64,000 nt of DNA from a phage, in assembly GCA_028130375.1 (NCBI GenBank), contig GCA_028130375.1_3658.1; one strand, 5' to 3'. The position numbers were made by a program, and so were the translations under genes. The notes under the pieces are model-generated. The model searched no databases, had not been told where the DNA came from, and saw nothing but the letters and a program-made list of their open reading frames with translations. Of the stretch, positions 48,901 through 63,075 are shown piece by piece (position 1 is the stretch's first letter; every line of letters begins with the position of its first letter).

Positions 48901-49016
48901 GTTTGCAGAATAACGGGCACCCCCGGTGATTGTCTCCCGGCCCCTGTTGCCCCGGCTTGTTATTATAGTATCACACAGGACAAAGAAGGCAAGGATTTTT
49001 TGCATAAATTTTTAAA

Positions 49017-49035
49017 TGATAATGATAACCGTTCT
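49017..49035. promoter_or_regulatory. Fur-box-like operator (16/19 match)
   Basis: gataatgataaccgttctc; followed, like the first copy, by a GC-rich about 35-bp element. Confidence 0.45.
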
Positions 49036-49055
49036 CATTTTATGCAGCGCCCATC

Positions 49056-49090
49056 CCCGGTGGTTATCTCCCCCGTCACCGGTGCCTGCC
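49056..49090. repeat. GC-rich dispersed element (inverted copy at 58031-58066, partial copy at 48918-48945)
   Basis: ccggtggttatctcccccgtcaccggtgcctgccg versus reverse complement of 58031-58066 (about 31/35 identical). Confidence 0.55.
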
Positions 49091-49529
49091 GTCCTTTCGA
49101 TAGGTATATTGTGCCACCTGGCGGGGCCGCTGTCAACACCTTTCAAAAAAAATTATAACCAGGTGCGCCCACTGCCAGGACCTGGCGGGGCCAGTCTGGC
49201 AGGGGAGAGTGAAAGCTTGCAAACCTGGTAGGGCTATGCTATAGGGTAGGCAACAACTGGAGAGGAGGTACAAAAATGAAAGGTAATATGATCCCCTGGA
49301 AAATGTAGCGACTAATGACGCTGAGGCTATCGCCATGGTTGAAAAGGCTATGGCGGGAGCGTTGGAACATAAAGAAGAGTACGAAAAAATGGTGGTTAAC
49401 CTGGCGGGGGCGGCAGGTGGATTCTATCATAAAAATAATTTAAAATAGTCGTTGACAACAAGGTTAATCATGGTATTATTACCCTACAAGGTGAACAACA
49501 CCGCACTAACCAGTAAAGAGGATAAATTT

Positions 49530-49727
49530 ATGAACGCATACGGGATCAAAGTACGTCGCAACACTCGCCAGGTGGTCACCAATCAAGTGATTTGCCGGGT
49601 GGATGTAACCATCAACAACGGGCAAGGCCTTTATAAATTTCGTCGCGGTCATAGCTATACCCTGCAACAGCTTAATCGTTGCGCCCTGACAAAAGGTCAG
49701 ATCAACCACTGGTTTAATAAAAAATAA
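49530..49727 (+). CDS. Hypothetical small protein (first gene of small-gene cluster)
   Basis: ATG 49530 after aaagaggataaa; upstream TTGACA at 49463-49468. Confidence 0.35.
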   Translation: MNAYGIKVRRNTRQVVTNQVICRVDVTINNGQGLYKFRRGHSYTLQQLNRCALTKGQINHWFNKK

Positions 49728-49791
49728 GTATTGACATATAGTCCGACACCAAATACACTAAAAGCACAAAAGACACTAAGAGGATAAAATC

Positions 49792-50190
49792 ATGAAAACC
49801 ACTACCTTTAATTTTGATAATGCAGACTTTTCTTTTTCTGATGTCAAGAACTGCCGCCGTGATCGTGGATTTTACAAGGCTTATAATCTGGTGGGCCTGG
49901 ACGATGACAATAATTTGCACGAAGTAGCTGAGATCCGGTATTATGCCGCCGCCAGCGGGAACACTTACTACTGCGTTTTTTGGATACACGACAACAAGAA
50001 CAATAAGTACGGCTATACTGGCGGCAAGGCGAGCGGTCACGGTTATGATAAAGCTAACGCAGCACTTGAGAGCGCATTAAATGCTATGGGGATCACTGCC
50101 GACGGCTGGATCTACGAAGAAGAGTTTTTGTCGGCACTTGCTGACCACCTAGGCTATAAAAAGCACATTGTAACATGCGCCCACGAATAA
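49792..50190 (+). CDS. Hypothetical protein
   Basis: 132 aa; preceded by TTGACA..TACACT promoter and conserved UTR aagaggataaaatcATG. Confidence 0.5.
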   Translation: MKTTTFNFDNADFSFSDVKNCRRDRGFYKAYNLVGLDDDNNLHEVAEIRYYAAASGNTYYCVFWIHDNKNNKYGYTGGKASGHGYDKANAALESALNAMGITADGWIYEEEFLSALADHLGYKKHIVTCAHE

Positions 50191-50272
50191 AAATCATTGA
50201 CACGCTGCAAAATTTAAGTAAACTAGACACAAAAGGCGGGAATGTTTCCCGCCAGCACAAAGGAAAAAGATC

Positions 50273-50677
50273 ATGAATAAGAACGTACGCCGCATCATGA
50301 ACGAGTTGGCAAACGATGAAAAAATTATTGACATGCATTTGATCAACATTTGCCGCCGTTGTGTAACATATAACAACCGCGCCGCAAAAGCGCGTGAGAT
50401 GAACGCAAAAGGCACCTTAAAGCCATTCCAGGTGGTGGTAAAGGCCATTAAAGATGTAACTAATACGGCAAACCAGGTACAGGGGAACACCAACGAGAGT
50501 ACCAATATTGATCCAGCTTACATCATGAAACGGATCCGGACCTGCAAGAACAAAGAGCAAGTGTATAATGTCATAGACTGGTTGGATTCTATGGGCGATG
50601 TGGTTTACAATAGGTTTTCTGCAGCTATCGAGATCCAGCTTGACAGGTTGGACGGTAAAGTACTGAAAACTTACTAA
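50273..50677 (+). CDS. Hypothetical protein
   Basis: 134 aa; cassette TTGACA-16-TAAACT, hairpin ggcgggaatgtttcccgcc, SD, ATG. Confidence 0.5.
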   Translation: MNKNVRRIMNELANDEKIIDMHLINICRRCVTYNNRAAKAREMNAKGTLKPFQVVVKAIKDVTNTANQVQGNTNESTNIDPAYIMKRIRTCKNKEQVYNVIDWLDSMGDVVYNRFSAAIEIQLDRLDGKVLKTY

Positions 50678-50678
50678 G

Positions 50679-50725
50679 TTTATTTTTAGATGGCCTTGAC
50701 TTCAGGGCCATCAATAAAGTAAACT
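50679..50725 (+). repeat. Promoter-bearing stem-loop repeat, copy 1
   Basis: ttatttttagatggccttgacttcagggccatcaataaagtaaact; 7-bp stem gatggcc / ggccatc with TTGACT in the loop, TAAACT downstream. Confidence 0.65.
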
Positions 50726-50757
50726 AATCTCAACTAAGCGAAAAAGGGGGCTTTAAG

Positions 50758-50877
50758 ATGAGCACTACACGCCAATACACAAAGGTAACTATTATCGTTT
50801 GCGTTGTCGGTTACATCCTGGCGCAAATGTTAATGAGTAGCGCTAACAGTTTTGCAAAATTTTTCTTAAATTTTTAA
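50758..50877 (+). CDS. Tiny hydrophobic peptide (39 aa)
   Basis: Unlisted short ORF after the repeat; RBS aaaaaggggg; sequence MSTTRQYTKVTIIVCVVGYILAQMLMSSANSFAKFFLNF. Confidence 0.3.
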   Translation: MSTTRQYTKVTIIVCVVGYILAQMLMSSANSFAKFFLNF

Positions 50878-50956
50878 TTGACAAACTGACTTAGATCGAT
50901 ATACTTAAACACGTAAACGGGAAAACTTCCCAGAGCACACAAAAGGAGAAAACACC

Positions 50957-51298
50957 ATGACTACTATGACCGCCGCAGAAAAAGCTATGCAGATCGCCGC
51001 GCTGAAAAAACAGATCGCAGACCTTGAGAACAAGATCGATAACTTTGAAATCGACGAGGACAAGTACGACGAAAACTATGATGAATGGTTAGACGAGATC
51101 TACGGCGAAATTATGATCGGAAACATTTCTTTTCTTCCGTCGCGTATCCTCAAGGAGCTAGATCCTATCGCTTACCGCTGCGGATTTGGCGACTACATCG
51201 ACAGCCTGGATATTGAGGACGATGAAGAATACCAGGAACTACAGACAGAGTTAGAAGAAGCAAAAGAAGAGCTTGCGGAGCTGGAAGAAAACGAGTAA
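50957..51298 (+). CDS. Hypothetical acidic protein
   Basis: 113 aa, Asp/Glu-rich C-terminus; cassette TTGACA-16-TATACT + hairpin + aaaaggagaaaacaccATG. Confidence 0.5.
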   Translation: MTTMTAAEKAMQIAALKKQIADLENKIDNFEIDEDKYDENYDEWLDEIYGEIMIGNISFLPSRILKELDPIAYRCGFGDYIDSLDIEDDEEYQELQTELEEAKEELAELEENE

Positions 51299-51300
51299 GA

Positions 51301-51346
51301 TTATTTTTAGATGGCCTTGACTTCAGGGCCATCAATAAAGTAAACT
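51301..51346 (+). repeat. Promoter-bearing stem-loop repeat, copy 2
   Basis: Identical to copy 1 over about 46 bp, directly after the 51298 stop. Confidence 0.65.
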
Positions 51347-51387
51347 TTATACTGTTAACACTGAACTAATTCAGAGGAGTTAAAACC

Positions 51388-51633
51388 ATGGCAGCACTAA
51401 TCACCAAATATTATGCCCCTACCAACACCAAAAGCGCCCGTATCATGGTAAAAGGCTTCGGACGTAAAAAGGTTTACACCTGGGATTATGCCTTAGACAC
51501 GGAAGACAACTACACCAACGCGATGACCGATTTTATTAATGATCTGAACACGCGGATCTTGACAAATTATAAAATTACCGATATTGCCTATATAGGGGAA
51601 GGCGGGATCTGTTTTGTCGGTATCGTCAAATAA
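51388..51633 (+). CDS. Hypothetical protein
   Basis: 81 aa with RBS gaggag. Confidence 0.5.
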   Translation: MAALITKYYAPTNTKSARIMVKGFGRKKVYTWDYALDTEDNYTNAMTDFINDLNTRILTNYKITDIAYIGEGGICFVGIVK

Positions 51634-51709
51634 GCTGTTTTTTCGGTGGTCCTGGTAGCAGGGCCATCTATAAAGATAGTTTATCAACACAATGAAAGGA
51701 GAAAGTAAC

Positions 51710-52063
51710 ATGATCAGCGGGGCAAGTTTTATTATTGGCGCTATTGCTACGGCTTTAATTGTAAACAAGATCCAATCCAAAAACGAAAAAGAGAGCAACG
51801 CGCTTACAGAATACCCATTTTGGGTATTCAACGACAATGAAGACTACATTATCAAGTACAAGGATGAGAAAGGGGACCAGGTAACACCGAGACCGATCCC
51901 AGCTTACAAGATGCAAGAAACATTATACCGCTTAAAGGCTGGCGGCGCAAAAATCGTAGACTTTTGGGGATATGATTGCAAGGATCAGGAGACTATAAAA
52001 CGTCGTATCCGGGCGATTCAGGCAAATATTGAGATCAGTAAAGGGGGCGTTTATGAAAATTAA
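51710..52063 (+). CDS. Putative membrane protein
   Basis: ATG 51710 after aaaggagaaagtaac; N-terminal TM-like ISGASFIIGAIATALIV. Confidence 0.45.
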   Translation: MISGASFIIGAIATALIVNKIQSKNEKESNALTEYPFWVFNDNEDYIIKYKDEKGDQVTPRPIPAYKMQETLYRLKAGGAKIVDFWGYDCKDQETIKRRIRAIQANIEISKGGVYEN

Positions 52064-52250
52064 TTTCGAAAAAATTGTAAAGCGCCCCCACGATTCCGAA
52101 GAGCTGCCGGAACGCCGCCAGCGTAACAATAAACTGAATAAACCGAAAAGGTTCGGGAAGATCTGGAGAAATCACTATGATCGCAAATTACCGAGCCTGC
52201 TTTTGGAACGTGAACGACAGGCGGAACGATACCGCCACAAAGACAAATAG
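52053..52250 (+). CDS. Small highly basic protein
   Basis: About 65 aa rich in Arg/Lys (KRPHDSEELPERRQRNNKLNKPKRFGK); followed by a terminator hairpin at about 52268-52297. Confidence 0.4.
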   Translation: MKINFEKIVKRPHDSEELPERRQRNNKLNKPKRFGKIWRNHYDRKLPSLLLERERQAERYRHKDK

Positions 52251-52495
52251 CAACCAACGCCCCGCCATTGTGAGGGGCTTTTTATTTCTATCCCGCCGAT
52301 AGCGCCCCTGGTTGGCCCTACAAGCGCCATAAAGGCCCCTACCTATGCAATCCCCTTTCTTAACCTGAAAACAGCGTCTAGGGCCGTTTTATGGCGTTAA
52401 AAATATTATTGACAGTGATTCTATTTAAAGCTTGACACCTTGGGATAGTCCGGATATACTAACCACATCAAAGCAAGAAGGAAGGAGTAAACGCC

Positions 52496-52756
52496 ATGCG
52501 TAAATTAAAAAATTTTGATAAAGTCGATGTTGTCCTGAATAATTTTTACTACTGCAATAATAAAGCCGTTTGGTGGCGTGATAGTTCCACCGATAAAGTT
52601 AAAGCGCGCTTTCTCCAAGGGCACTGGCAAGGCCGTCCAGTGATTAAAATCCTGGGGCAATTGGTAGCGTTTAAAAATTGCCGCCGTGTTGATGACGTTG
52701 AAGAGATTCTAAACATTTTACGCCACAATAATTTAAAAAATAGTGTTGACAAGTAA
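52496..52756 (+). CDS. Hypothetical protein
   Basis: 86 aa; cassette TTGACA-17-TATACT upstream. Confidence 0.5.
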   Translation: MRKLKNFDKVDVVLNNFYYCNNKAVWWRDSSTDKVKARFLQGHWQGRPVIKILGQLVAFKNCRRVDDVEEILNILRHNNLKNSVDK

Positions 52757-52830
52757 GTCTCAATAAGTATACTTAAACACACAGGCGGGAAGTTTTCCCG
52801 CCACTAACAAAGAAAATAGGAGAAAATATC

Positions 52831-53454
52831 ATGACCACCGTTAACATTACTACAGGTTACAATTTATCTTTCGACGTGCTGACCGGCGAACAAAAAGAAA
52901 AAGCTGTTGAAATGGTCCGCGAAAGAGAAGAACACAGCGGGGATAACTTTTTTGCAGAAAGTGTAATTGAGTACTATAAAGAATATGTTTTTCCAGAGTA
53001 TGGCCTTGAAGATACCGAAATACATTGGTCCGGCTTTTGGTGTCAAGGCGACGGCGCATCAATTAGCGCTGAAAATGTAAACTTAGAAAAATTCTTGCGT
53101 AAGGTTAAAGCGCTTACAAAATTCCGCTTAATTAGACACTTGTTCGGCACAATGCATGATGGCGAACTGTCAGCCAGCGTTGAACGTATCCCGTTTAGCC
53201 ATTATCATCACGAAAACACAATAGGCGGGTGCATCGATACCAATTGGCTAGACCTGACCACCAAGCAAGAGGATAAAGTTGAAGAGCTGGAAGAGCTGAT
53301 CACCGAGACGGTACGGGAGTTATCCCGCAAGGTTTACGTAGACCTGGAGCAAGCCTATCTTGAACAATTCACCACCGAAAACCTGATCGGCCTTATCGAG
53401 GCCAATGATTGGCGGTTTGATGTGGATGAATATGGCGAGATGACTTTTTCATAA
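52831..53454 (+). CDS. Hypothetical protein
   Basis: 207 aa; cassette TTGACA-16-TATACT, hairpin ggcgggaagttttcccgcc, aaataggagaaaatatcATG. Confidence 0.55.
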   Translation: MTTVNITTGYNLSFDVLTGEQKEKAVEMVREREEHSGDNFFAESVIEYYKEYVFPEYGLEDTEIHWSGFWCQGDGASISAENVNLEKFLRKVKALTKFRLIRHLFGTMHDGELSASVERIPFSHYHHENTIGGCIDTNWLDLTTKQEDKVEELEELITETVRELSRKVYVDLEQAYLEQFTTENLIGLIEANDWRFDVDEYGEMTFS

Positions 53455-53542
53455 ATAAAGTGTTGCAATAACCTAAAAACCTGCTATATTAGAACTCAAG
53501 GGGCAAGAAGTTTGCCCCACACAAAACAAAGAGGAAAACATC

Positions 53543-53923
53543 ATGAAAAGCACCACTAAAGCCATTGACACCGTTATGTTTAACCTGGTTACCTTTCGCG
53601 AGGATATGAAAGATCTTCCACGTGAAACAGTGCGCGATCACATTGAAAACTATCGCAAACTAATCAAAGAGTTGCCTTTAAAACGTGACCAGTACGCGGC
53701 TAACGCTATGCTTAACGCTATGATCAAGAAAATGATCCAGTGTGATTTGACTTTAGCTTATGATTATGCAGGTGGTCGTTTTGCAGTATACAATCAGCCC
53801 GTGCCCGGTATGAGCACCACCGAAGAATTGCACGCGTTAAATCTGAAACAAGATGTATGGGATAACATGCCCCGCGTGGTGGTGTGGGCAGAAAGCGGAA
53901 AGATTTACGGCGATAATTTTTAA
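53543..53923 (+). CDS. Hypothetical protein
   Basis: 126 aa; upstream hairpin ggggcaagaagtttgcccc and aaagaggaaaacatcATG. Confidence 0.5.
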   Translation: MKSTTKAIDTVMFNLVTFREDMKDLPRETVRDHIENYRKLIKELPLKRDQYAANAMLNAMIKKMIQCDLTLAYDYAGGRFAVYNQPVPGMSTTEELHALNLKQDVWDNMPRVVVWAESGKIYGDNF

Positions 53924-53987
53924 TCAGGTAACAGGCGGCATATTTGCCGCCTTATTGTTAAACAGAACTGCAAAAGAGGTACATAGA

Positions 53988-54359
53988 ATGGAATTTATTA
54001 TTTTGGCTGTAGTAGTTGCCTTGTTCAACGCCTGGATAGCTGGCAAAATAGGTAGATCCGCTTTTCTATGGTTTGTTATATCTATTTTCCTGGGAGTGGT
54101 TGCAACCATTGTACTAGTTATCCTTGCAATTGTTGACAAGGATAATAATAAGAAGGGTAAAGTATTTTCCGACCTGTATGACGCCCAAACTTTTGTTAAC
54201 GCCTATTATAGTGATCTTCCGGTCTCCTTGCGCTGCAGCCTGGCGCAACAAGTTTTTGATGAGGCTAAAACCAGAGATCAAGCCCATGAGATATGTTTAA
54301 CTGAGGCGGATCGCCTATTTGAGAGGAATAGAAAATATGTGGGCCAACCGTTTAAATAA
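53988..54359 (+). CDS. Putative membrane protein (2 TM)
   Basis: ATG 53988 after aaagaggtacatagA; MEFIILAVVVALFNAWIAGKIG and FLWFVISIFLGVVATIVLVILAIV. Confidence 0.45.
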   Translation: MEFIILAVVVALFNAWIAGKIGRSAFLWFVISIFLGVVATIVLVILAIVDKDNNKKGKVFSDLYDAQTFVNAYYSDLPVSLRCSLAQQVFDEAKTRDQAHEICLTEADRLFERNRKYVGQPFK

Positions 54360-54582
54360 TGCCACGTTAATTAATCCCTTTAGTGAAGATTTGAAGCCAG
54401 CCGCCTGGCGTGACGGATTCAATAACGAACGCTTTATTTTCAGGCCTGATCTTGAGGAATTTTATAACAATGGATCGAACAACAGCGGAGATAATTTTTC
54501 TTGTGGTGTGTGTCGTGATGGTACTCCTGGGGGCCATTGTAAACCACGTCACTACTACCAGGAGGAAAGGGGGAGACGATGA
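54337..54582 (+). CDS. Hypothetical small protein
   Basis: ATG 54337 after gagaggaa; overlaps an alternative-frame ORF, so it is uncertain. Confidence 0.3.
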   Translation: MWANRLNNATLINPFSEDLKPAAWRDGFNNERFIFRPDLEEFYNNGSNNSGDNFSCGVCRDGTPGGHCKPRHYYQEERGRR

Positions 54583-54837
54583 CAACCAAGGATAAGCCAT
54601 GCACCGATAAGGTGCGCCGCGTTATGGTATGGCTTGAGATTATCGCCCTTGAAATATTGCTAGGAGTAGGGATGTACTTTATCGCTGTAAGTAACTAGGA
54701 ACGGCCCCCGATCATGGGGGCCTATCTTTTTAAAAAATTTTTCTTCCGTGGTGTTGCAATCCGGTCCGGAATGTGGATAATAACAATCAACGGGGAGCTA
54801 ATCCCCACCACCACAAAAACCAGAAAGGAGAAACAAA

Positions 54838-55038
54838 ATGAGCAACAATATCCGCGTTATTAACTTCAAAAAAGAAGAAAAAATTGCCGTGCTGATTGAC
54901 GGTCAAGAAATCTTCAAGGGCGACTATGAAGATCATCAAACGGCGATTAGTATCACTCGCGTGATTGGTTACCATAATTTTTACCCCCAAGGCGCTGAGG
55001 CAGCGGTTAAACGAATCAAAGAGATTGTAGGCCTGTAA
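54838..55038 (+). CDS. Hypothetical small protein
   Basis: 66 aa; promoter TTGCAA..GATAAT, hairpin ggggagctaatcccc, aaaggagaaacaaaATG. Confidence 0.5.
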   Translation: MSNNIRVINFKKEEKIAVLIDGQEIFKGDYEDHQTAISITRVIGYHNFYPQGAEAAVKRIKEIVGL

Positions 55039-55041
55039 AAT

Positions 55042-55085
55042 TTATTTTTAGATGGCCTTGACTCCAGGGCCATCAATAAAGTAAA
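55042..55085 (+). repeat. Promoter-bearing stem-loop repeat, copy 3
   Basis: Same element with one substitution in the loop (ttgactcc vs ttgacttc). Confidence 0.65.
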
Positions 55086-55131
55086 TTTAAACCCTGTTAA
55101 AATACCACACAGTTAACAAGGAGTGATAGAC

Positions 55132-55431
55132 ATGTTTATCCAGGCTAATAATCTTTATTTCTTTGATGGTCAGATCGTAGATGGTGTGGAAGTGGAGATC
55201 ACCGGGTGCCCTGGCGGTCAGGCTATGACTTTTCGGAATAATGCCTTTGATGATTCTCATATCGTTATGAGAATGGAAGTTACGAAGCTGGACGACAAGA
55301 AAACACTTATTGACTATTCTGTGAAAGATCATCCAGACTACCGCATGATCCATGGCGATTTGTGCATTGTTGACCGTGACAAGGTGGGCGGCATTGTGAT
55401 CGCTATTGTGAACGATGTTTTCTCAAACTAA
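55132..55431 (+). CDS. Hypothetical protein
   Basis: ATG 55132 after aaggag. Confidence 0.5.
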   Translation: MFIQANNLYFFDGQIVDGVEVEITGCPGGQAMTFRNNAFDDSHIVMRMEVTKLDDKKTLIDYSVKDHPDYRMIHGDLCIVDRDKVGGIVIAIVNDVFSN

Positions 55432-55448
55432 TTTCAGCAGGCGATTTT

Positions 55449-55799
55449 ATGAAAGTCAAACTATATTACCTTAATGAGCTTAACCCCCTTGCCCAGGTCC
55501 GCGCCCTAGCTAATACCTTGATTTGTGAGAAATCTGTATATTGTGTTGAGCTTAACGCCATGCGTGAACGTCTCAAAGGTGGTTACTTTGACATCCATGC
55601 TGCAATCAACGGCCTGAATATAGAATTTATACGCTTACGTAACAGCCGCCGGAATCTGGCAAGAATGGAACAAGATCCGGCCCACCTTCGTAAGCTGGTT
55701 ATTGAAAATCATCTGATGTTTAATGCCGAGGGTGATTATTACCATTTTCACCGCAAACGCTGGTACCGTGGCGGCAATACAGGCAAGAATGCAAAATAA
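55449..55799 (+). CDS. Hypothetical protein
   Basis: 116 aa; followed by terminator hairpin aggctatgc-aat-cgcatagcct at about 55836-55866. Confidence 0.5.
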   Translation: MKVKLYYLNELNPLAQVRALANTLICEKSVYCVELNAMRERLKGGYFDIHAAINGLNIEFIRLRNSRRNLARMEQDPAHLRKLVIENHLMFNAEGDYYHFHRKRWYRGGNTGKNAK

Positions 55800-56001
55800 G
55801 GCCCCAGGCAGGGCCTACAGCGACCTAAACACTAGCAGGCTATGCAATCGCATAGCCTTTATTGTTTTGACGTTACAACGGCCCTAAGGTGCTTAAAAAA
55901 AAATTTTAAATAAAGGCTTGCATCAAGTCGAACAATATGGATAATAAGAGGTGTAGGGAGGTGATGCCTCCAATCATTAACAAAAACAGGAGTTAAAGAA
56001 T

Positions 56002-56286
56002 ATGGCTATTGTTACCGCTGGCGATGTAGTAAAAATGGAAGCGAAGTATTTAAAAGCTGGTATGCATATCATCCGCAATGATCTTGAACTGGTCCTCACT
56101 ATGGTTGATTATAACCCTGGTCAAGATTATCCAAGTGTTGACTACTTTTTTGAGTATGTCGATGAAGAGCTAAAAGAGGATGAGGCCTACTGCGGAGAAT
56201 TCTGCAACTACTTTTGCCCTGACGAGGTTGTAAAAGTTATCTACCAACCTGGCGTACCTTTCCCGCTACACGCTATCAATAAATAA
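56002..56286 (+). CDS. Hypothetical protein
   Basis: 94 aa; promoter TTGCAT-17-(G)ATAAT at about 55919-55950. Confidence 0.5.
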   Translation: MAIVTAGDVVKMEAKYLKAGMHIIRNDLELVLTMVDYNPGQDYPSVDYFFEYVDEELKEDEAYCGEFCNYFCPDEVVKVIYQPGVPFPLHAINK

Positions 56287-56341
56287 ACCCGGCGGGGCCG
56301 AAAAGGCCCCCAATTATGAAAATAAAGAGAGGTAAATCATC

Positions 56342-56575
56342 ATGATGGAACAAATTAAACGCACTGAGGCTATTAATGGCAATGTGATCTATTTTGTCAG
56401 CAAAAACGAAAAAGGCGTACCCTATGCGGCGGTAACAGTACAACCTGACGGCGATTATTGGTTTACTGTGTACGGCGCTTATTCTTTTGGGCGTCCAGTG
56501 CATGATAAAATTTTGAAAGTAGCGAACCCTACCGGGAAGAATATCACAGCAGAAAAATTTTTTGAAAATAGTTGA
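56342..56575 (+). CDS. Hypothetical protein
   Basis: 77 aa, RBS agagaggtaaa. Confidence 0.5.
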   Translation: MMEQIKRTEAINGNVIYFVSKNEKGVPYAAVTVQPDGDYWFTVYGAYSFGRPVHDKILKVANPTGKNITAEKFFENS

Positions 56576-56650
56576 CATGACCATATAAGACTGTAATATA
56601 TAAATCAAAGGGGGCAACAAGCCCCACCAACCACAAAGAGGATAAAAATC

Positions 56651-56830
56651 ATGGCTATTATTGCAAAGACTGAGATCGTAGGCTTAGATTCTATTCTCCT
56701 CGCATATGAGGAAGCTATAGAAATGTATGTGGTTTCCTATGGTGAGTATATCCGTGAATATAAATCTATTGATCTGGCTTTTGAATGTTATATTCGCCAG
56801 GTTAATAAAGCGTACGATGATTATCGTTAA
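56651..56830 (+). CDS. Small hypothetical protein (59 aa)
   Basis: Unlisted short ORF with full cassette TTGACA..TAATAT, hairpin, acaaagaggataaaaatcATG. Confidence 0.35.
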   Translation: MAIIAKTEIVGLDSILLAYEEAIEMYVVSYGEYIREYKSIDLAFECYIRQVNKAYDDYR

Positions 56831-57035
56831 AATAGTTTGACAACAAACAACCATCTAACAAAGCATAATACATAAGGTGGTAGAATGATCCGCCACCCGG
56901 AACAAAGAAGAGGTAAACACCATGAAACAAAAATTAATTGATGCTGTGATCCTGGTTATTGCCCTGGGTATTGGCCTGATTGCAACCATGGCTAATATGA
57001 TCTTGTCTTCCAACGGTATCTGGTGAGGTTGGCAA

Positions 57036-57251
57036 ATGATCACTAACAAAACAGGCAAAACAGAATTTTTACGCAACTTACAGATCGGCAAGCCTGAGAT
57101 CTGGTATTGCACTAAAACACCACGTGACGAAATGAAAGACTTCACCGCCACGTTGCAACGGGTAAAGATATCCATCACGCAGAAAAAGGCCTTATTAGTG
57201 GTGGAAGGTGAGATCCCCCAAACCGTTGTTATAGTTGAGCGTACAGCATAG
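57036..57251 (+). CDS. Hypothetical protein
   Basis: 71-aa ORF. Confidence 0.4.
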   Translation: MITNKTGKTEFLRNLQIGKPEIWYCTKTPRDEMKDFTATLQRVKISITQKKALLVVEGEIPQTVVIVERTA

Positions 57252-57342
57252 TTTAATTTATACCGATACCCGAAAATTAACCAACAAAGCATAAACAGGC
57301 GGTTACCGCCGCCTTAAACGTAGCAGAAAGAGGATAGACACA

Positions 57343-57627
57343 ATGAAAAAGATGATCGCAGTGGTTGCCCTGGTTGTTGGACTTAATGCGCCTGTAATGG
57401 CTAAAGAGCTGGCAAAAGAGGTTAATCTAACGGATATTCATGCCGTCAATAAAATCGGGGTTACTTATCGCTTATGCCTTGCCGCTAAAACTTTCCAGGA
57501 CGGCACGACAGAGTACTACGGATTCGAGGGTATCCGGTGCGGTGAGCTTGCTCGCGACCTTAAGGAAGATCCAGACCTGGAAGATCTGCCCATCACCGTA
57601 AACGGTAAAGCTTACGTAAACCGTTAA
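57343..57627 (+). CDS. Small secreted/periplasmic protein (signal peptide)
   Basis: 94 aa; MKKMIAVVALVVGLNAPVMAKE looks like a Sec signal; RBS agaaagagga. Confidence 0.5.
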   Translation: MKKMIAVVALVVGLNAPVMAKELAKEVNLTDIHAVNKIGVTYRLCLAAKTFQDGTTEYYGFEGIRCGELARDLKEDPDLEDLPITVNGKAYVNR

Positions 57628-57779
57628 CCATGAGAAAGATAATCATCACCTTGGGGATTGTGGCGGGATCGCTGGCGCTCTTTCCCCTTATGGTTAGGTA
57701 TGTGCTGATCAGTATTGTCCTGGTAGTCAGTGATCTATTGGAAACGGTTGGCACCTTGTTTTAAAGAGCGATAAAAAAA

Positions 57780-57971
57780 ATGAATGTCGAACAAGTTAGA
57801 AAGGTATTGGCGGTACTGCGTTATCATAATCATAGAAAGGTCATAGACGATCCTGATTATGTCGATTCAAACCTGGAAGAGGATACACTACAAGCCATAA
57901 GTAACATGCAAGAATTGCTAAAGCGCATGACAGAGAAAAACCGACCGGACTACATAGGCGAAAAAATATAA
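57780..57971 (+). CDS. Hypothetical small protein
   Basis: 63 aa; followed by hairpin aaaacagg..cctgtttt + T-run at about 57986-58015. Confidence 0.4.
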   Translation: MNVEQVRKVLAVLRYHNHRKVIDDPDYVDSNLEEDTLQAISNMQELLKRMTEKNRPDYIGEKI

Positions 57972-58030
57972 TATTTATAAACTACAAAACAGGGCTTGCA
58001 ATGGTCCTGTTTTTTGTTATACTTATTCCA

Positions 58031-58066
58031 CGGCAGGCACCTGGCGACGGGGGAGACAATCACCGG
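58031..58066. repeat. GC-rich dispersed element, inverted copy
   Basis: Reverse complement matches 49056-49090. Confidence 0.55.
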
Positions 58067-58181
58067 GCCTGCCTGTCATATAAGAACTATAAAAACCGTT
58101 GACATCTGCCATGGGGTGGGGTAACATTTATCTTGAAGGGGCAAAAGTGCCCACACAACAACCAGGAGAGAGGAAAACATT

Positions 58182-58454
58182 ATGTCAAGCTGGATTAATC
58201 AAGAAGTCGAATCACGTTTTAATGCTATATGGGATCTCATCGAAAAAGAGGACGGAACATCAAGCCCCTACCTCAACAATTTGGAATTCCATTTTGTGGA
58301 AGCGATGAACGCAGAACATGATCACGAAGGTGGCGCGGATGAGTTCGCTAAAGGTTATGGCTTTAACAATGCCAACGAAATGATCGAGGCGGTAGTACTC
58401 CAGGCTGAGGAAGATTATCAATTAAAAACGCTTGAATTCTGCCGCCGTAAGTAA
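58182..58454 (+). CDS. Hypothetical acidic protein
   Basis: 90 aa; promoter TTGACA-17-TAACAT at about 58086-58114. Confidence 0.5.
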   Translation: MSSWINQEVESRFNAIWDLIEKEDGTSSPYLNNLEFHFVEAMNAEHDHEGGADEFAKGYGFNNANEMIEAVVLQAEEDYQLKTLEFCRRK

Positions 58455-58514
58455 TAAGATAATGACACGGGCCAAAAGGCCCACTAATCAGAACCACACA
58501 AAGAGAGAAAGAAA

Positions 58515-58733
58515 ATGACAACCCGTAAAATTAAAGTTGTTTGCATTGAATCGACTGGGGGCGCTTTTGTAGTTGGTCAGGAATATAATGCGGTTTTAAT
58601 GGGTACGGATTGGAAGGTTAAAGGCCTTAATGGTTACGAGTACGGCACTACTTGCGGCTTGCGTGGTCGAATCGGATACGTGAGTTTAGACAATAAAGAA
58701 AAATTTGTTTTCGACACCCTTGTGAGTAAATAG
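58515..58733 (+). CDS. Hypothetical small protein
   Basis: 72-aa ORF. Confidence 0.45.
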   Translation: MTTRKIKVVCIESTGGAFVVGQEYNAVLMGTDWKVKGLNGYEYGTTCGLRGRIGYVSLDNKEKFVFDTLVSK

Positions 58734-58810
58734 CATGAATTGCTAAAGACTGATCTGCGAACTGCTGTATTATCAACTAATCAAAACGAACCACATAAAG
58801 AGTAAACATC

Positions 58811-59074
58811 ATGAAACGTCTGGATCAGCTTAAATTAGTTCAGTACATGGCCTACAGAATTCTTGAAGTCCAAAAAGGTAGCAAAAAAGAGGTTTGCGAG
58901 AAAGCTTATAAGATCTTTACCCGCAAAAAAGATGACTGGATGCTGCGCCAGACCAAAAAGGCTGACATCTTGGGGTACCTGGAAGAAGAGATCCGCCTTG
59001 AAGAGCAAGAAGAGATCCGCCGTAGTGAGGCAGATTATCAGGCAGCTTGGGAAAGCTGGATGAGTAACAAATAA
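58811..59074 (+). CDS. Hypothetical protein
   Basis: 87-aa ORF. Confidence 0.5.
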   Translation: MKRLDQLKLVQYMAYRILEVQKGSKKEVCEKAYKIFTRKKDDWMLRQTKKADILGYLEEEIRLEEQEEIRRSEADYQAAWESWMSNK

Positions 59075-59217
59075 TACAACAAGTTACGGTCAGGGGGTAA
59101 TAAAGCCCCTTGATCACATAAAAATTATGCTATCCCTGGTTGACAGGGATCGGCAGTTTTGCTATATTCTTTTTTGAAGGGAAGTTGTAAGAAAATTAAC
59201 TAAGAGGTAAAAACACC

Positions 59218-59637
59218 ATGAACATTAAATCTAATAATCCGGCATATAGCTTTGATAACGCTTTTTGTCACGGTCCGGCGGCGAAAGGATTCGAAATCGA
59301 TGGTAAACTAATTATTGTCAATGTTGACGGGGAAGAGGTTGCAGTATATCCGGTGGCAGACGTAAAAAGTCGTTTACAATGCCGCATGGATGTTACCGCC
59401 TACCAGCTTGATCCGGTCCGCATAGTTGCCCTGGTCCTGGAAGGAGAAATTAAAGCCATGCACCATAGCAACAGGTTTATTGGTGACGCTCAGGATAATA
59501 TGAAAGTATGCCGCCATAAAGTTAATGAAGTGCTTAAAGAGTACGGCTATAAAGATCTTATGATCAAACGTGAGGAAAAATTCCGCTACCGTAACGACCT
59601 GGCAAATCGGATTTTTGAAATATACGAATCATTATAA
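59218..59637 (+). CDS. Hypothetical protein (last gene of cluster)
   Basis: 139 aa; promoter TTGACA-17-TATATT at about 59141-59169; terminator hairpin aaggggcttaggcccctt + T-run at 59655-59680. Confidence 0.5.
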   Translation: MNIKSNNPAYSFDNAFCHGPAAKGFEIDGKLIIVNVDGEEVAVYPVADVKSRLQCRMDVTAYQLDPVRIVALVLEGEIKAMHHSNRFIGDAQDNMKVCRHKVNEVLKEYGYKDLMIKREEKFRYRNDLANRIFEIYESL

Positions 59638-60298
59638 TTTTTAACTGAATTATCAAGGGGCTTAGGCCCCTTTCTTTTTGTCTGCTCTTCCCCCCTACCA
59701 TAAACGGCCCTACCTGGCAAGTGGAATAATTGACGAGCCATCAATCCCACACACTGTACAAATATACATGTAAAATAGCTATTGCATAACCTTTCATTGT
59801 GTGGTAGCGGTGCTATTTTTTACCCGTTTTCCTTCCAAAATTGCACGTAATGCAGTTATTGCACAAAATTTAACCTGATGCACATCTTCAATATCTTGTC
59901 AACAACTAAAAATCTTTATAAGTCATACACTTACACAAACCAAAGAGCGTGTTCTACGTGAAAAATCGAGTATAACTATAGCCGCCAGATCTCAGAATTT
60001 ACGTACGCTCGCCATTCTATAGCCTGCTAAGCATTTATTCCAACCATAGAATAACGGAATAGTCAATACCTGCATAAAATAATTATTCGTGTAAACTGCA
60101 TAACATAAATCAGCTTAGGTGTCAACATTTTTCGTAAACAGTCTGAAATTATCACGGTGAGTTATCATAAACAGAGAAATCTTTAGTCGTCTAATGTTTA
60201 CTGTACGTTACTATACTAACTGAAATCATTAGATGACTAATAGAAAGATAAGAAATAATTAACAATACAATTATTTTATCTGTAACAATAAGGCAACT

Positions 60299-62502: not shown

Positions 62503-62715
62503 TCATAGTCTACCACCTCTGAACTCTTCGTGCTCAGGCATAATAGAGAACCAGATATCTACGATGTCCTCCCACGTCAGGTCATCAGCCTCAGGATCTG
62601 TCTGGGACGAAGATGAAGAGTCCTCAGAATCTAAGTTTTCCTCTTTAACTGGCTCATCCAAGGGACATATGGTCACTCCTTCGGATGTCTCTTCAGATGC
62701 ATGTGTGTTGATCAT
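62503..62715 (-). CDS. Hypothetical acidic small protein
   Basis: 70-aa ORF; an overlapping + strand ORF also exists so strand is uncertain; - strand chosen to match neighbours. Confidence 0.3.
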   Translation of the reverse strand: MINTHASEETSEGVTICPLDEPVKEENLDSEDSSSSSQTDPEADDLTWEDIVDIWFSIMPEHEEFRGGRL

Positions 62716-63075
62716 GTTCCACCCGTGAGTATTCCGGCAACAGCCGCTATGGAAGTAATGATCATCAGGATCACCACTAAAACTTCAGACAATGTTCTCA
62801 TTGTGTATTCCATATTCTCCAAACTGTGTGTGGATACTATCACGGGAGCGGTAATGTGTCAACAGAAACGCCGCGAGGGTTTGGTTAAAATCCGAGCGTA
62901 TGGTGATTTGGGTCAAAACGGACGTGCGTTCTCGCTACGCTCGAAAGAGAGATTTGTTTGTAGGAAGCTCTTAAACGCTCTGTAATGAGATTATCTGTCC
63001 AAGGTATGCAATCGTGCACCAGATAAAGAAAAGGACGCCACAGAGCGTCCTAGGTGTCTTAAATTTGATATTTTG

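Follow-up and report, generated by a model that had tools for sequence, protein, structure and literature searches.

Candidate single-helix membrane peptides encoded by conserved micro-genes of an rV5-like phage

Four short open reading frames (ORFs) on the plus strand of a 64,000-nucleotide stretch of phage DNA (NCBI GenBank assembly GCA_028130375.1, contig GCA_028130375.1_3658.1; hereafter the window) encode hydrophobic peptides with a predicted transmembrane (TM) segment. Each opens with ATG, and they are referred to as p1 (50758..50877, 39 amino acids (aa)), p2 (54579..54698, 39 aa), p3 (56922..57026, 34 aa), and p4 (57630..57764, 44 aa); a fifth candidate, p5 (54470..54595, plus strand, 41 aa, MDRTTAEIIFLVVCVVMVLLGAIVNHVTTTRRKGGDDDNQG), overlaps the start of p2 by 17 nt. 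The favored explanation, to which a probability of about 0.5 is assigned, is that p1–p4, and probably p5, are accessory genes of an rV5-like phage for 34–44-aa single-helix peptides of the inner membrane. That p1–p4 are genuine coding genes is very probable. The four ORFs are already known from the 2013 annotation of phage rV5, and the present analysis adds quantitative evidence of selection and the p5 candidate.

By sequence, the source of the window is an rV5-like Escherichia coli myovirus of the genus Vequintavirus; positions 50000–58500 align over their full length with FFH2, rV5_ev168, JeffSchatz/Bas55, and other such phages at 92–95% identity. An earlier note on this DNA had listed the four micro-ORFs with their coordinates, lengths, and ribosome-binding strings, all of which are present in the sequence exactly. 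It had also called them unlisted, a description that holds for the 60-aa cutoff of the ORF track then in use and for nothing more, as they are annotated coding sequences at colinear positions in rV5, FV3, JeffSchatz, and A51.2 (as ‘putative membrane protein’), and are also annotated in LL12, Mangalyan, and further phages. The novelty that this implied is therefore lost: Table S3 of the rV5 paper describes ORF193, ORF181, ORF173, and ORF170 each as ‘membrane protein, 1 TMD’ (one transmembrane domain), and the 123-aa ORF183 as ‘1-2 TMD’ (PMC3606486). These are the same genes as p1 (ORF193/gp188), p2 (ORF181/gp176), p3 (ORF173/gp168), and p4 (ORF170/gp165), respectively, with 73–100% identity and the same position and order, and they differ only as alleles. 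Many NCBI and UniRef accessions contain the exact p1–p4 sequences. Profile matches in PHROGs are essentially full length for p1 (phrog_16391, E = 4e-31), p2 (phrog_13629, 2e-32), p3 (phrog_14631, 9e-23), and p4 (phrog_16005, 6e-27), all in the category ‘unknown function’.

Evidence that these ORFs are genuine coding genes comes from the ratio of nonsynonymous to synonymous polymorphism (pN/pS), computed by pooled pairwise Nei–Gojobori counts with a codon bootstrap over about 10–22 relatives anchored to the window by blastn. The ratio is 0.17 for p1 (95% confidence interval (CI) 0.08–0.32), 0.24 for p2 (0.10–0.52), 0.33 for p3 (0.17–0.74), and 0.42 for p4 (0.27–0.65); the off-frames of the same ORFs give about 0.7–3.8 and accepted neighboring genes 0.06–0.20. 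Tree-aware parsimony counts reveal an enrichment of changes at third codon positions in p1 (P = 1e-5), p2 (P = 0.004), and p4 (P = 0.001). Each of the four peptides also contains a 19-residue segment with a mean Kyte–Doolittle hydropathy of 2.0–2.4, above the usual TM threshold of 1.6 over such a segment. The claim that the ORFs code for single-TM peptides is borne out by this combination of purifying selection in the proposed frames and hydropathy above the threshold.

The hydrophobic character of these ORFs is not explained by chance, since 5 of the 21 plus-strand ATG-initiated ORFs of 30–59 aa between 49500 and 59500 are equally hydrophobic, against a mean of 0.05 in 100 shuffles of the sequence (an enrichment of approximately 100-fold), and the two hydrophobic ORFs of this size on the minus strand both lack a Shine–Dalgarno (SD) sequence. 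Four of the five plus-strand ORFs are additionally preceded by an SD with a duplex energy of −6 kcal/mol or lower.

The constraint is distributed unevenly along the peptides. In p2, the helix of codons 17–39 (WLEIIALEILLGVGMYFIAV), which carries two Glu residues, is nearly invariant, with a pN/pS of 0.09 at a normal pS of 0.20, while the basic N-terminal tail has a ratio of 0.59 and also an in-frame indel. In p4, core codons 21–36 have a ratio of 0.25 and the last eight residues 1.09; the C-terminus occurs in two alternative versions, LLETVGT[LW]F or VLYINSLF. An AlphaFold2 (AF2) model of p4 is a single continuous helix over residues 2–43 with a pLDDT of 93. Distinct replacements within the hydrophobic segment remain non-polar in 26 of 28 cases in p3 (P = 1e-4) and in 21 of 25 in p4 (P = 0.015), where approximately 60% is expected from random nonsynonymous changes. 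The membrane-embedded residues therefore appear to be the functional part of the peptides, most clearly in p2.

The earlier note had named conservation in relatives as a point on which its claim would stand or fall, and homologs of the peptides are widespread among phage records. By tblastn, p1 is found in 113 records, p2 in 119, and p4 in 162, the last including Phapecoctavirus members at 70–77% identity; p4 is also present in 39 protein clusters. The distribution of p3 is taken from a DNA search and a local tblastn. When 1.84 billion representatives were scanned in full with HMMER, p3 matched one cluster, and scans of metagenomes and of IMG/VR returned five loci each. Two p3 alleles, beginning MKQKLIDAV and MLEKIFTVV, are 55% identical, equal in length, and share the C-terminal ATMANMILSS(N/H)GIG; the second lies unannotated upstream of a 71-aa gene in Phapecoctavirus ESCO37 and in Justusliebigvirus alia and is absent from Certrevirus CR3. 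The p3 of the window itself ends in NGIW (57021–57023), where all relatives examined end in GIG, and a single Logan assembly contig is the one other place where the W was seen. The longer start annotated for p3 in rV5 (46 aa) was rejected, as the window has the upstream ATG in a different frame and the added residues lack conservation. Comparisons between the peptide families do not support paralogy, with hhalign probabilities of 6% for p3/p5, 1.3% for p3/p1, and 0.6% for p5/p1.

The translation signals of p1, p2, and p3 match or exceed those of accepted genes in the same region. Duplex energies between the SD and the anti-SD at the 3' end of 16S rRNA are −10.7 kcal/mol for p1 (AAGGGGG, 50744..50750), −10.7 kcal/mol for p2 (region AGGAGGAAAGGGGGAG, 54560..54575), and −7.1 kcal/mol for p3 (AAGAGGT, 56908..56914), all on the plus strand. 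The corresponding energies of accepted neighbors are mostly −5.6 to −9.1 kcal/mol, with a few weaker, and other ATGs in the region average −2.4 kcal/mol. The earlier description of the p4 ribosome-binding site as weak was correct; the duplex energy is +0.6 kcal/mol, which amounts to no SD. As p4 lacks an SD and its ATG lies 2 nt past the stop of the upstream 94-aa gene, it is most likely translated by coupling to that gene, which encodes a putative secreted protein. The initiation regions of many genes in the block share a stereotyped A-rich motif, AAGAGGAAAACAYCATGA, which belongs to the direct-repeat families D2 and D4 and is found at 49779–49800, 50937–50960, 52811–52834, 53523–53551, 56902–56930, 58169–58190, 58791–58814, and 59198–59221. 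This motif is shared by p3 and its full-size neighbors.

The tight packing of p3 and p4 against their neighbors, with gaps of 9 and 2 nt that resemble coupling, is what would be expected if the peptides were non-functional and the ORFs were spacers or upstream ORFs tuning downstream genes, or simply annotation noise. Such an account is hard to reconcile with the amino-acid constraint described above, particularly a ratio of 0.09 in the p2 helix at normal synonymous divergence, or with the retention of hydrophobic character in p3 despite 28 replacements. Nor would an ORF serving purely as a spacer be expected to keep its length and motif in alleles as divergent as those of p3. The spacer explanation is consequently considered the most improbable of those weighed here.

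The fifth candidate, p5, was found by a systematic scan for small plus-strand ORFs that are intact in relatives. It occupies the +1 frame over the 3' third of ORF 54337..54582 (plus strand; rV5 ORF182), which is annotated as 81 aa, and it is the most hydrophobic of the five peptides (Kyte–Doolittle 3.0). In the annotated frame, pN/pS is 0.33 over 54337–54468 versus 1.08 (CI 0.59–2.28) over 54469–54578, and only the first ∼44 codons look constrained. In the p5 frame, the ratio is 1.35 upstream of the ATG versus 0.47 (CI 0.26–0.88) within p5. At about 54470, purifying selection thus seems to pass out of the annotated frame and into that of p5. The stop of the annotated ORF varies among relatives, giving products of 73 or 81 aa, and the ATG and open frame of p5 are kept in all 22 aligned relatives; tblastn covers at least 80% of p5 in 118 records. 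Among the records examined, it is annotated only in phage Gotham, where the 81-aa ORF is omitted, and in two JGI calls, has no match in PHROGs, and its exact sequence is absent from a collection of 15 billion proteins. On balance, p5 is probably a real coding element, a judgment held with considerably less assurance than that for p1–p4. If so, the frame switch suggests that roughly 120 deposited genomes carry a gene model of the rV5 ORF182 homolog with an incorrect 3' end, hiding a membrane peptide.

The principal competing interpretation is that p5 is not an independent gene, and that either a +1 frameshift joins the TM segment to the N-terminal ∼42 residues of ORF 54337 or the p5 frame is open, with its weak signal, by chance. 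In prfB, an SD-like element stands just upstream of the +1 slip site. A comparable arrangement is found here, with an SD-like GAGGAA 2 nt 5' of a slippery TTT-T (54460–54463). The possible SD of p5 itself (GAGGA, 54454..54458, plus strand; −6.2 kcal/mol) has a long spacing of 12 nt, which also favors non-independence, as do a helix ratio of 0.69 and a marginal third-position enrichment (P = 0.046). A fusion product is opposed by the lack of constraint on the p5 frame upstream of its ATG, and the A-site codon at the TTT-T site is TAT, whereas known +1 sites have a stop or a rare codon there. Other off-frame ORFs likewise remain open in close relatives of the window, as the chance interpretation would have it; however, in all eight of the other conserved off-frame ORFs in the scan the ratio is above 1 or undefined, compared with 0.46 for p5. 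The conservation of the ATG and the breadth of the tblastn coverage argue against both versions, and non-independence is left with a sizeable minority chance.

The peptide genes are regarded as accessory because their presence varies between relatives. On the JeffSchatz map, tail-fiber genes are followed by a minus-strand block and then by an extended series of plus-strand genes (rIIA/rIIB, helicase, primase, DNA polymerase), with several dozen small hypothetical genes at its end, and the p1–p4 ORFs fall inside this last block. The deposited genome of rV5_ev146 (LR699804.1, 131.9 kb) is without window positions 52201–58057, a 5.9-kb segment containing p5, p2, p3, p4, and about 18 other small genes, and the block is for this reason considered dispensable. 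A second deletion in the same genome, of 510 bp (window 50260–50769), leaves the p1 body fused to an upstream out-of-frame ORF. Among other relatives, Murica, LL12, JLBYU08, and MiataMamis have no p4, V18 has it fused with the gene that follows, and in JEP1 the entire p3–p4 segment is replaced. The p3–p4 neighborhood (about 56577–57772) is a mosaic hot spot among the phages compared, which include JEP1 and NHEP1, and some phages carry extra genes inserted upstream of p3.

Two other observations were made during these comparisons. A minus-strand micro-ORF at 62712–62813 encodes a hydrophobic 33-aa peptide (MEYTMRTLSEVLVVILMIITSIAAVAGILTGGT) behind the SD GGAGAA, is 100% conserved in rV5_ev146, and has a stop that overlaps (ATGA) the start of a gene for a 70-aa acidic protein (62715–62503). 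Approximately 20 GenBank records of the series MG0656xx, named ‘Campylobacter phage’ with Campylobacter jejuni as host, are 92–94% identical across this region to E. coli phages of the rV5-like and phAPEC8-like types, and their host labels look doubtful.

Two of the peptide genes have constant partners. A 71-aa gene (57036..57251, plus strand; rV5 ORF172, phrog_5988, pN/pS 0.09) always lies 9 nt 3' of p3, and the pair is kept across Vequintavirus, Phapecoctavirus, and Justusliebigvirus. The 94-aa gene upstream of p4 (57343..57627, plus strand; rV5 ORF171) encodes a product that has two Cys residues and an N-terminus resembling a signal peptide; p4 is always 3' of it, and Phapecoctavirus ESCO37 has this pair as well. 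The AF2 model of the 94-aa protein (pLDDT 79) has no informative fold match.

Phage T4 encodes the early small inner-membrane or periplasmic proteins Imm (83 aa) and Sp (97 aa), which exclude superinfecting phage and are dispensable in the laboratory. By comparison with these, the rV5 peptides, especially p4 with its 94-aa neighbor, could be early inner-membrane or periplasmic factors that block DNA injection by later phages. Early-type promoters and a predicted membrane or periplasmic location fit this proposal, as does the conservation of the secreted-protein and p4 pair across two subfamilies, and variable presence among relatives is expected of competition genes. Like the rV5 peptides, Imm and Sp are small membrane or periplasmic products of a lytic myovirus; however, they are larger, and the rV5 peptides resemble neither Imm and Sp nor any known exclusion protein in sequence or fold. 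The data do not separate exclusion from other membrane-targeted functions, and superinfection exclusion is judged unlikely.

The promoters and hairpins around the peptide genes bear on when they are expressed. The rV5 genome has 33 near-consensus sigma-70 promoters (PMC3606486). One of these, P192, corresponds to TTGACA-16-TATACT at 50878..50905 (plus strand), which matches 11 of 12 consensus positions and abuts the p1 stop. On its other side, p1 is flanked by the first copy of a 51-nt intergenic hairpin element, D1 (50675..50725, plus strand; fold −25 kcal/mol, z = −6.6), and stands by itself between D1 and P192. Four plus-strand copies of D1 are present (50675–50725, 51296–51346, 51631–51681, and 55037–55087), each beginning at a gene's stop codon or no more than one base away. 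They fold as interrupted hairpins of ∼20 bp at −21 to −27 kcal/mol (z about −6.5), a fold retained by the third copy at 69% identity. The loop and 3' flank bear a promoter-like TTGACT-N18-TAAACT, which is contained in copy 1. An intrinsic terminator was considered and rejected for D1, which is not of the canonical type because its stem is not followed by a T-run on either strand. Possible roles for D1 are in RNA processing or stabilization, or as a promoter module.

Both p5 and p2 belong to a hairpin-bounded unit. A terminator-like hairpin (53933–53952) precedes the first gene of this unit, which encodes a 123-aa protein with two TM segments (53988..54359, plus strand; rV5 ORF183) and, at a pN/pS of 0.06, is under the strongest constraint in the block. 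It is followed by ORF 54337–54582 and by p2 as the final gene, the start of which overlaps the stop of that ORF (ATGA). The unit closes with an intrinsic terminator at 54703..54732 (plus strand), 5 nt past the p2 stop, composed of a hairpin (54703–54722) with an 8-bp GC stem and a T-run. This is the best terminator-like site in the scan, and a terminator is annotated there in Murica.

The earlier note had suggested a role in lysis timing, whereby the peptides would act as holins, antiholins, or pinholin-like factors. The 123-aa two-TM protein is labeled ‘putative holin’ in the BASEL genomes, and p5 and p2 are co-transcribed with its gene, two points that speak for this suggestion. In rV5, however, the lysin gp89 and the sole proposed holin, gp129, are encoded in a different transcription unit (PMC3606486), and at least some 24 kb separate the peptide genes from the closest annotated cell-wall hydrolase, which lies upstream. 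The four peptides have no match to holin families in Pfam at E ≤ 1 and no PHROG in the ‘lysis’ category, and the two-TM protein has no holin match in Pfam or PHROGs, its PHROG category also being ‘unknown function’. According to the rV5 paper, holins usually have two or three TMDs and a charged C-terminus (PMC3606486). Peptides of 34–44 aa are shorter than characterized holins, their genes carry sigma-70 promoters of the early type, and four of the five are missing from the deposited rV5_ev146 genome. Because the lysin and putative holin are distant and matches to holin families were lacking, the lysis-timing role is unsupported, and it is rated highly improbable. The other role raised by the earlier note, host takeover, is plausible; the surrounding block consists of small ORFan genes and has sigma-70 promoters of the consensus type.

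Toxin-like shut-off of the host was also considered, in which the peptides would oligomerize and leak protons or ions in the manner of Hok, TisB, and Ldr, arresting metabolism early. The size, hydrophobicity, and topology of the peptides are akin to those of type I toxins, and the two nearly invariant Glu residues of the p2 helix could line a pore. Searches of NCBIfam and Pfam for type I toxin families (Hok/Gef, Ldr, Ibs, TisB, ShoB, DinQ, and ZorO) nevertheless returned no match at E ≤ 1, with only sub-threshold lipoprotein-signal noise for p4. Replication of a lytic phage depends on an energized membrane, which argues against depolarization, as do the co-conserved partner genes of p3 and p4, for which a toxin would have no need. 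Rfam returned nothing above noise for 49000–60000, where no dedicated search for an antisense-RNA antitoxin was made. Depolarization is accordingly regarded as quite unlikely. Two family labels were also followed up for p4. Members of its family align end to end with the 46-aa Pfam family DUF7396 at 12–18 bits (E = 0.004–0.2), below the gathering threshold of 27, and the p4 of the window is unmatched; for ‘DUF3096’, a label that UniRef gives to one relative of p4, the assignment was not reproduced.

In the favored explanation, the peptides would be made early in infection, a timing that is likely because their genes sit among small ORFan genes with host-type sigma-70 promoters. Translation of p1, p2, and p3 would proceed from their own strong SDs and that of p4 through coupling to the upstream gene. 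The peptides would then insert into the inner membrane and make helix–helix contacts within the bilayer, their targets being larger membrane proteins that belong to the host or the phage, candidate phage partners being the co-transcribed two-TM protein and the secreted 94-aa protein. They would modulate these partners during takeover and not form lysis holes. Intramembrane contact is proposed because it is the residues embedded in the membrane that are constrained, most strikingly in p2, whose soluble tail varies freely. This mechanism, drawn by analogy, is tentative and is given somewhat less than even odds. A doubtful extension holds that p5 is independently translated and mis-annotated across the genus, and that the unit containing it forms, together with p1, p3, and p4, an intramembrane ‘toolkit’ in which each peptide would dock on its own specific inner-membrane protein of the host early in infection, with p2 doing so through its buried, nearly invariant Glu pair.

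Several results weigh against accessory genes for early membrane peptides as an explanation. No annotated-function match in Pfam, NCBIfam, or PHROGs was obtained for the peptides or ten neighboring genes, and the mechanism rests on analogy because homology to any characterized protein is lacking; literature searches found no transcriptome, Ribo-seq, localization, or functional study of these genes. The predicted insertion energies of p1 and p2 on the Hessa scale are marginal, at about +1.6 to +2.1 kcal/mol. The pN/pS of p4 is only moderate, the hydrophobic helix core of p5 is weakly constrained, and the third-position test for p3 is not significant (P = 0.13, 10 sequences). The relatives are also close and recombining, so that pairwise pooling over-counts shared changes and the codon bootstrap keeps their phylogenetic non-independence.

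Taken as they were first put forward, p1–p4 are an ordinary finding that goes no further than the 2013 annotation of rV5. As well-supported, conserved small membrane proteins of phage, they provide cheap targets for expression, partner, and deletion work in a group that is used in biocontrol and is represented in the BASEL collection (Bas48-59).

Known small membrane proteins offer several points of comparison. Gp11 of the Staphylococcus aureus phage ΦNM1 is described as a small membrane product of an early gene that blocks host cell division (PMC11237401). It resembles the rV5 peptides as a small membrane protein encoded among phage early genes, and its action on membrane-associated proteins of the host is of the type proposed for them; it differs in host type and has no sequence relationship to them, and the resemblance is one of functional analogy only. 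Holins and pinholins are also small hydrophobic membrane peptides, whereas the rV5 peptides are not encoded beside lysis genes and have early-type promoters. The type I toxins Hok, Ldr, and TisB are likewise small and hydrophobic, without a family match to the rV5 peptides. Bacterial regulatory small membrane proteins such as AcrZ, MgtS, MgrB, and MgtR act by touching a larger membrane protein inside the bilayer. The rV5 peptides differ from these in being phage-encoded and in having no match to such families in NCBIfam or Pfam, but they share the single TM helix of 30–50 aa with tiny soluble tails, and the pattern of constraint in p2 fits this mode of action.

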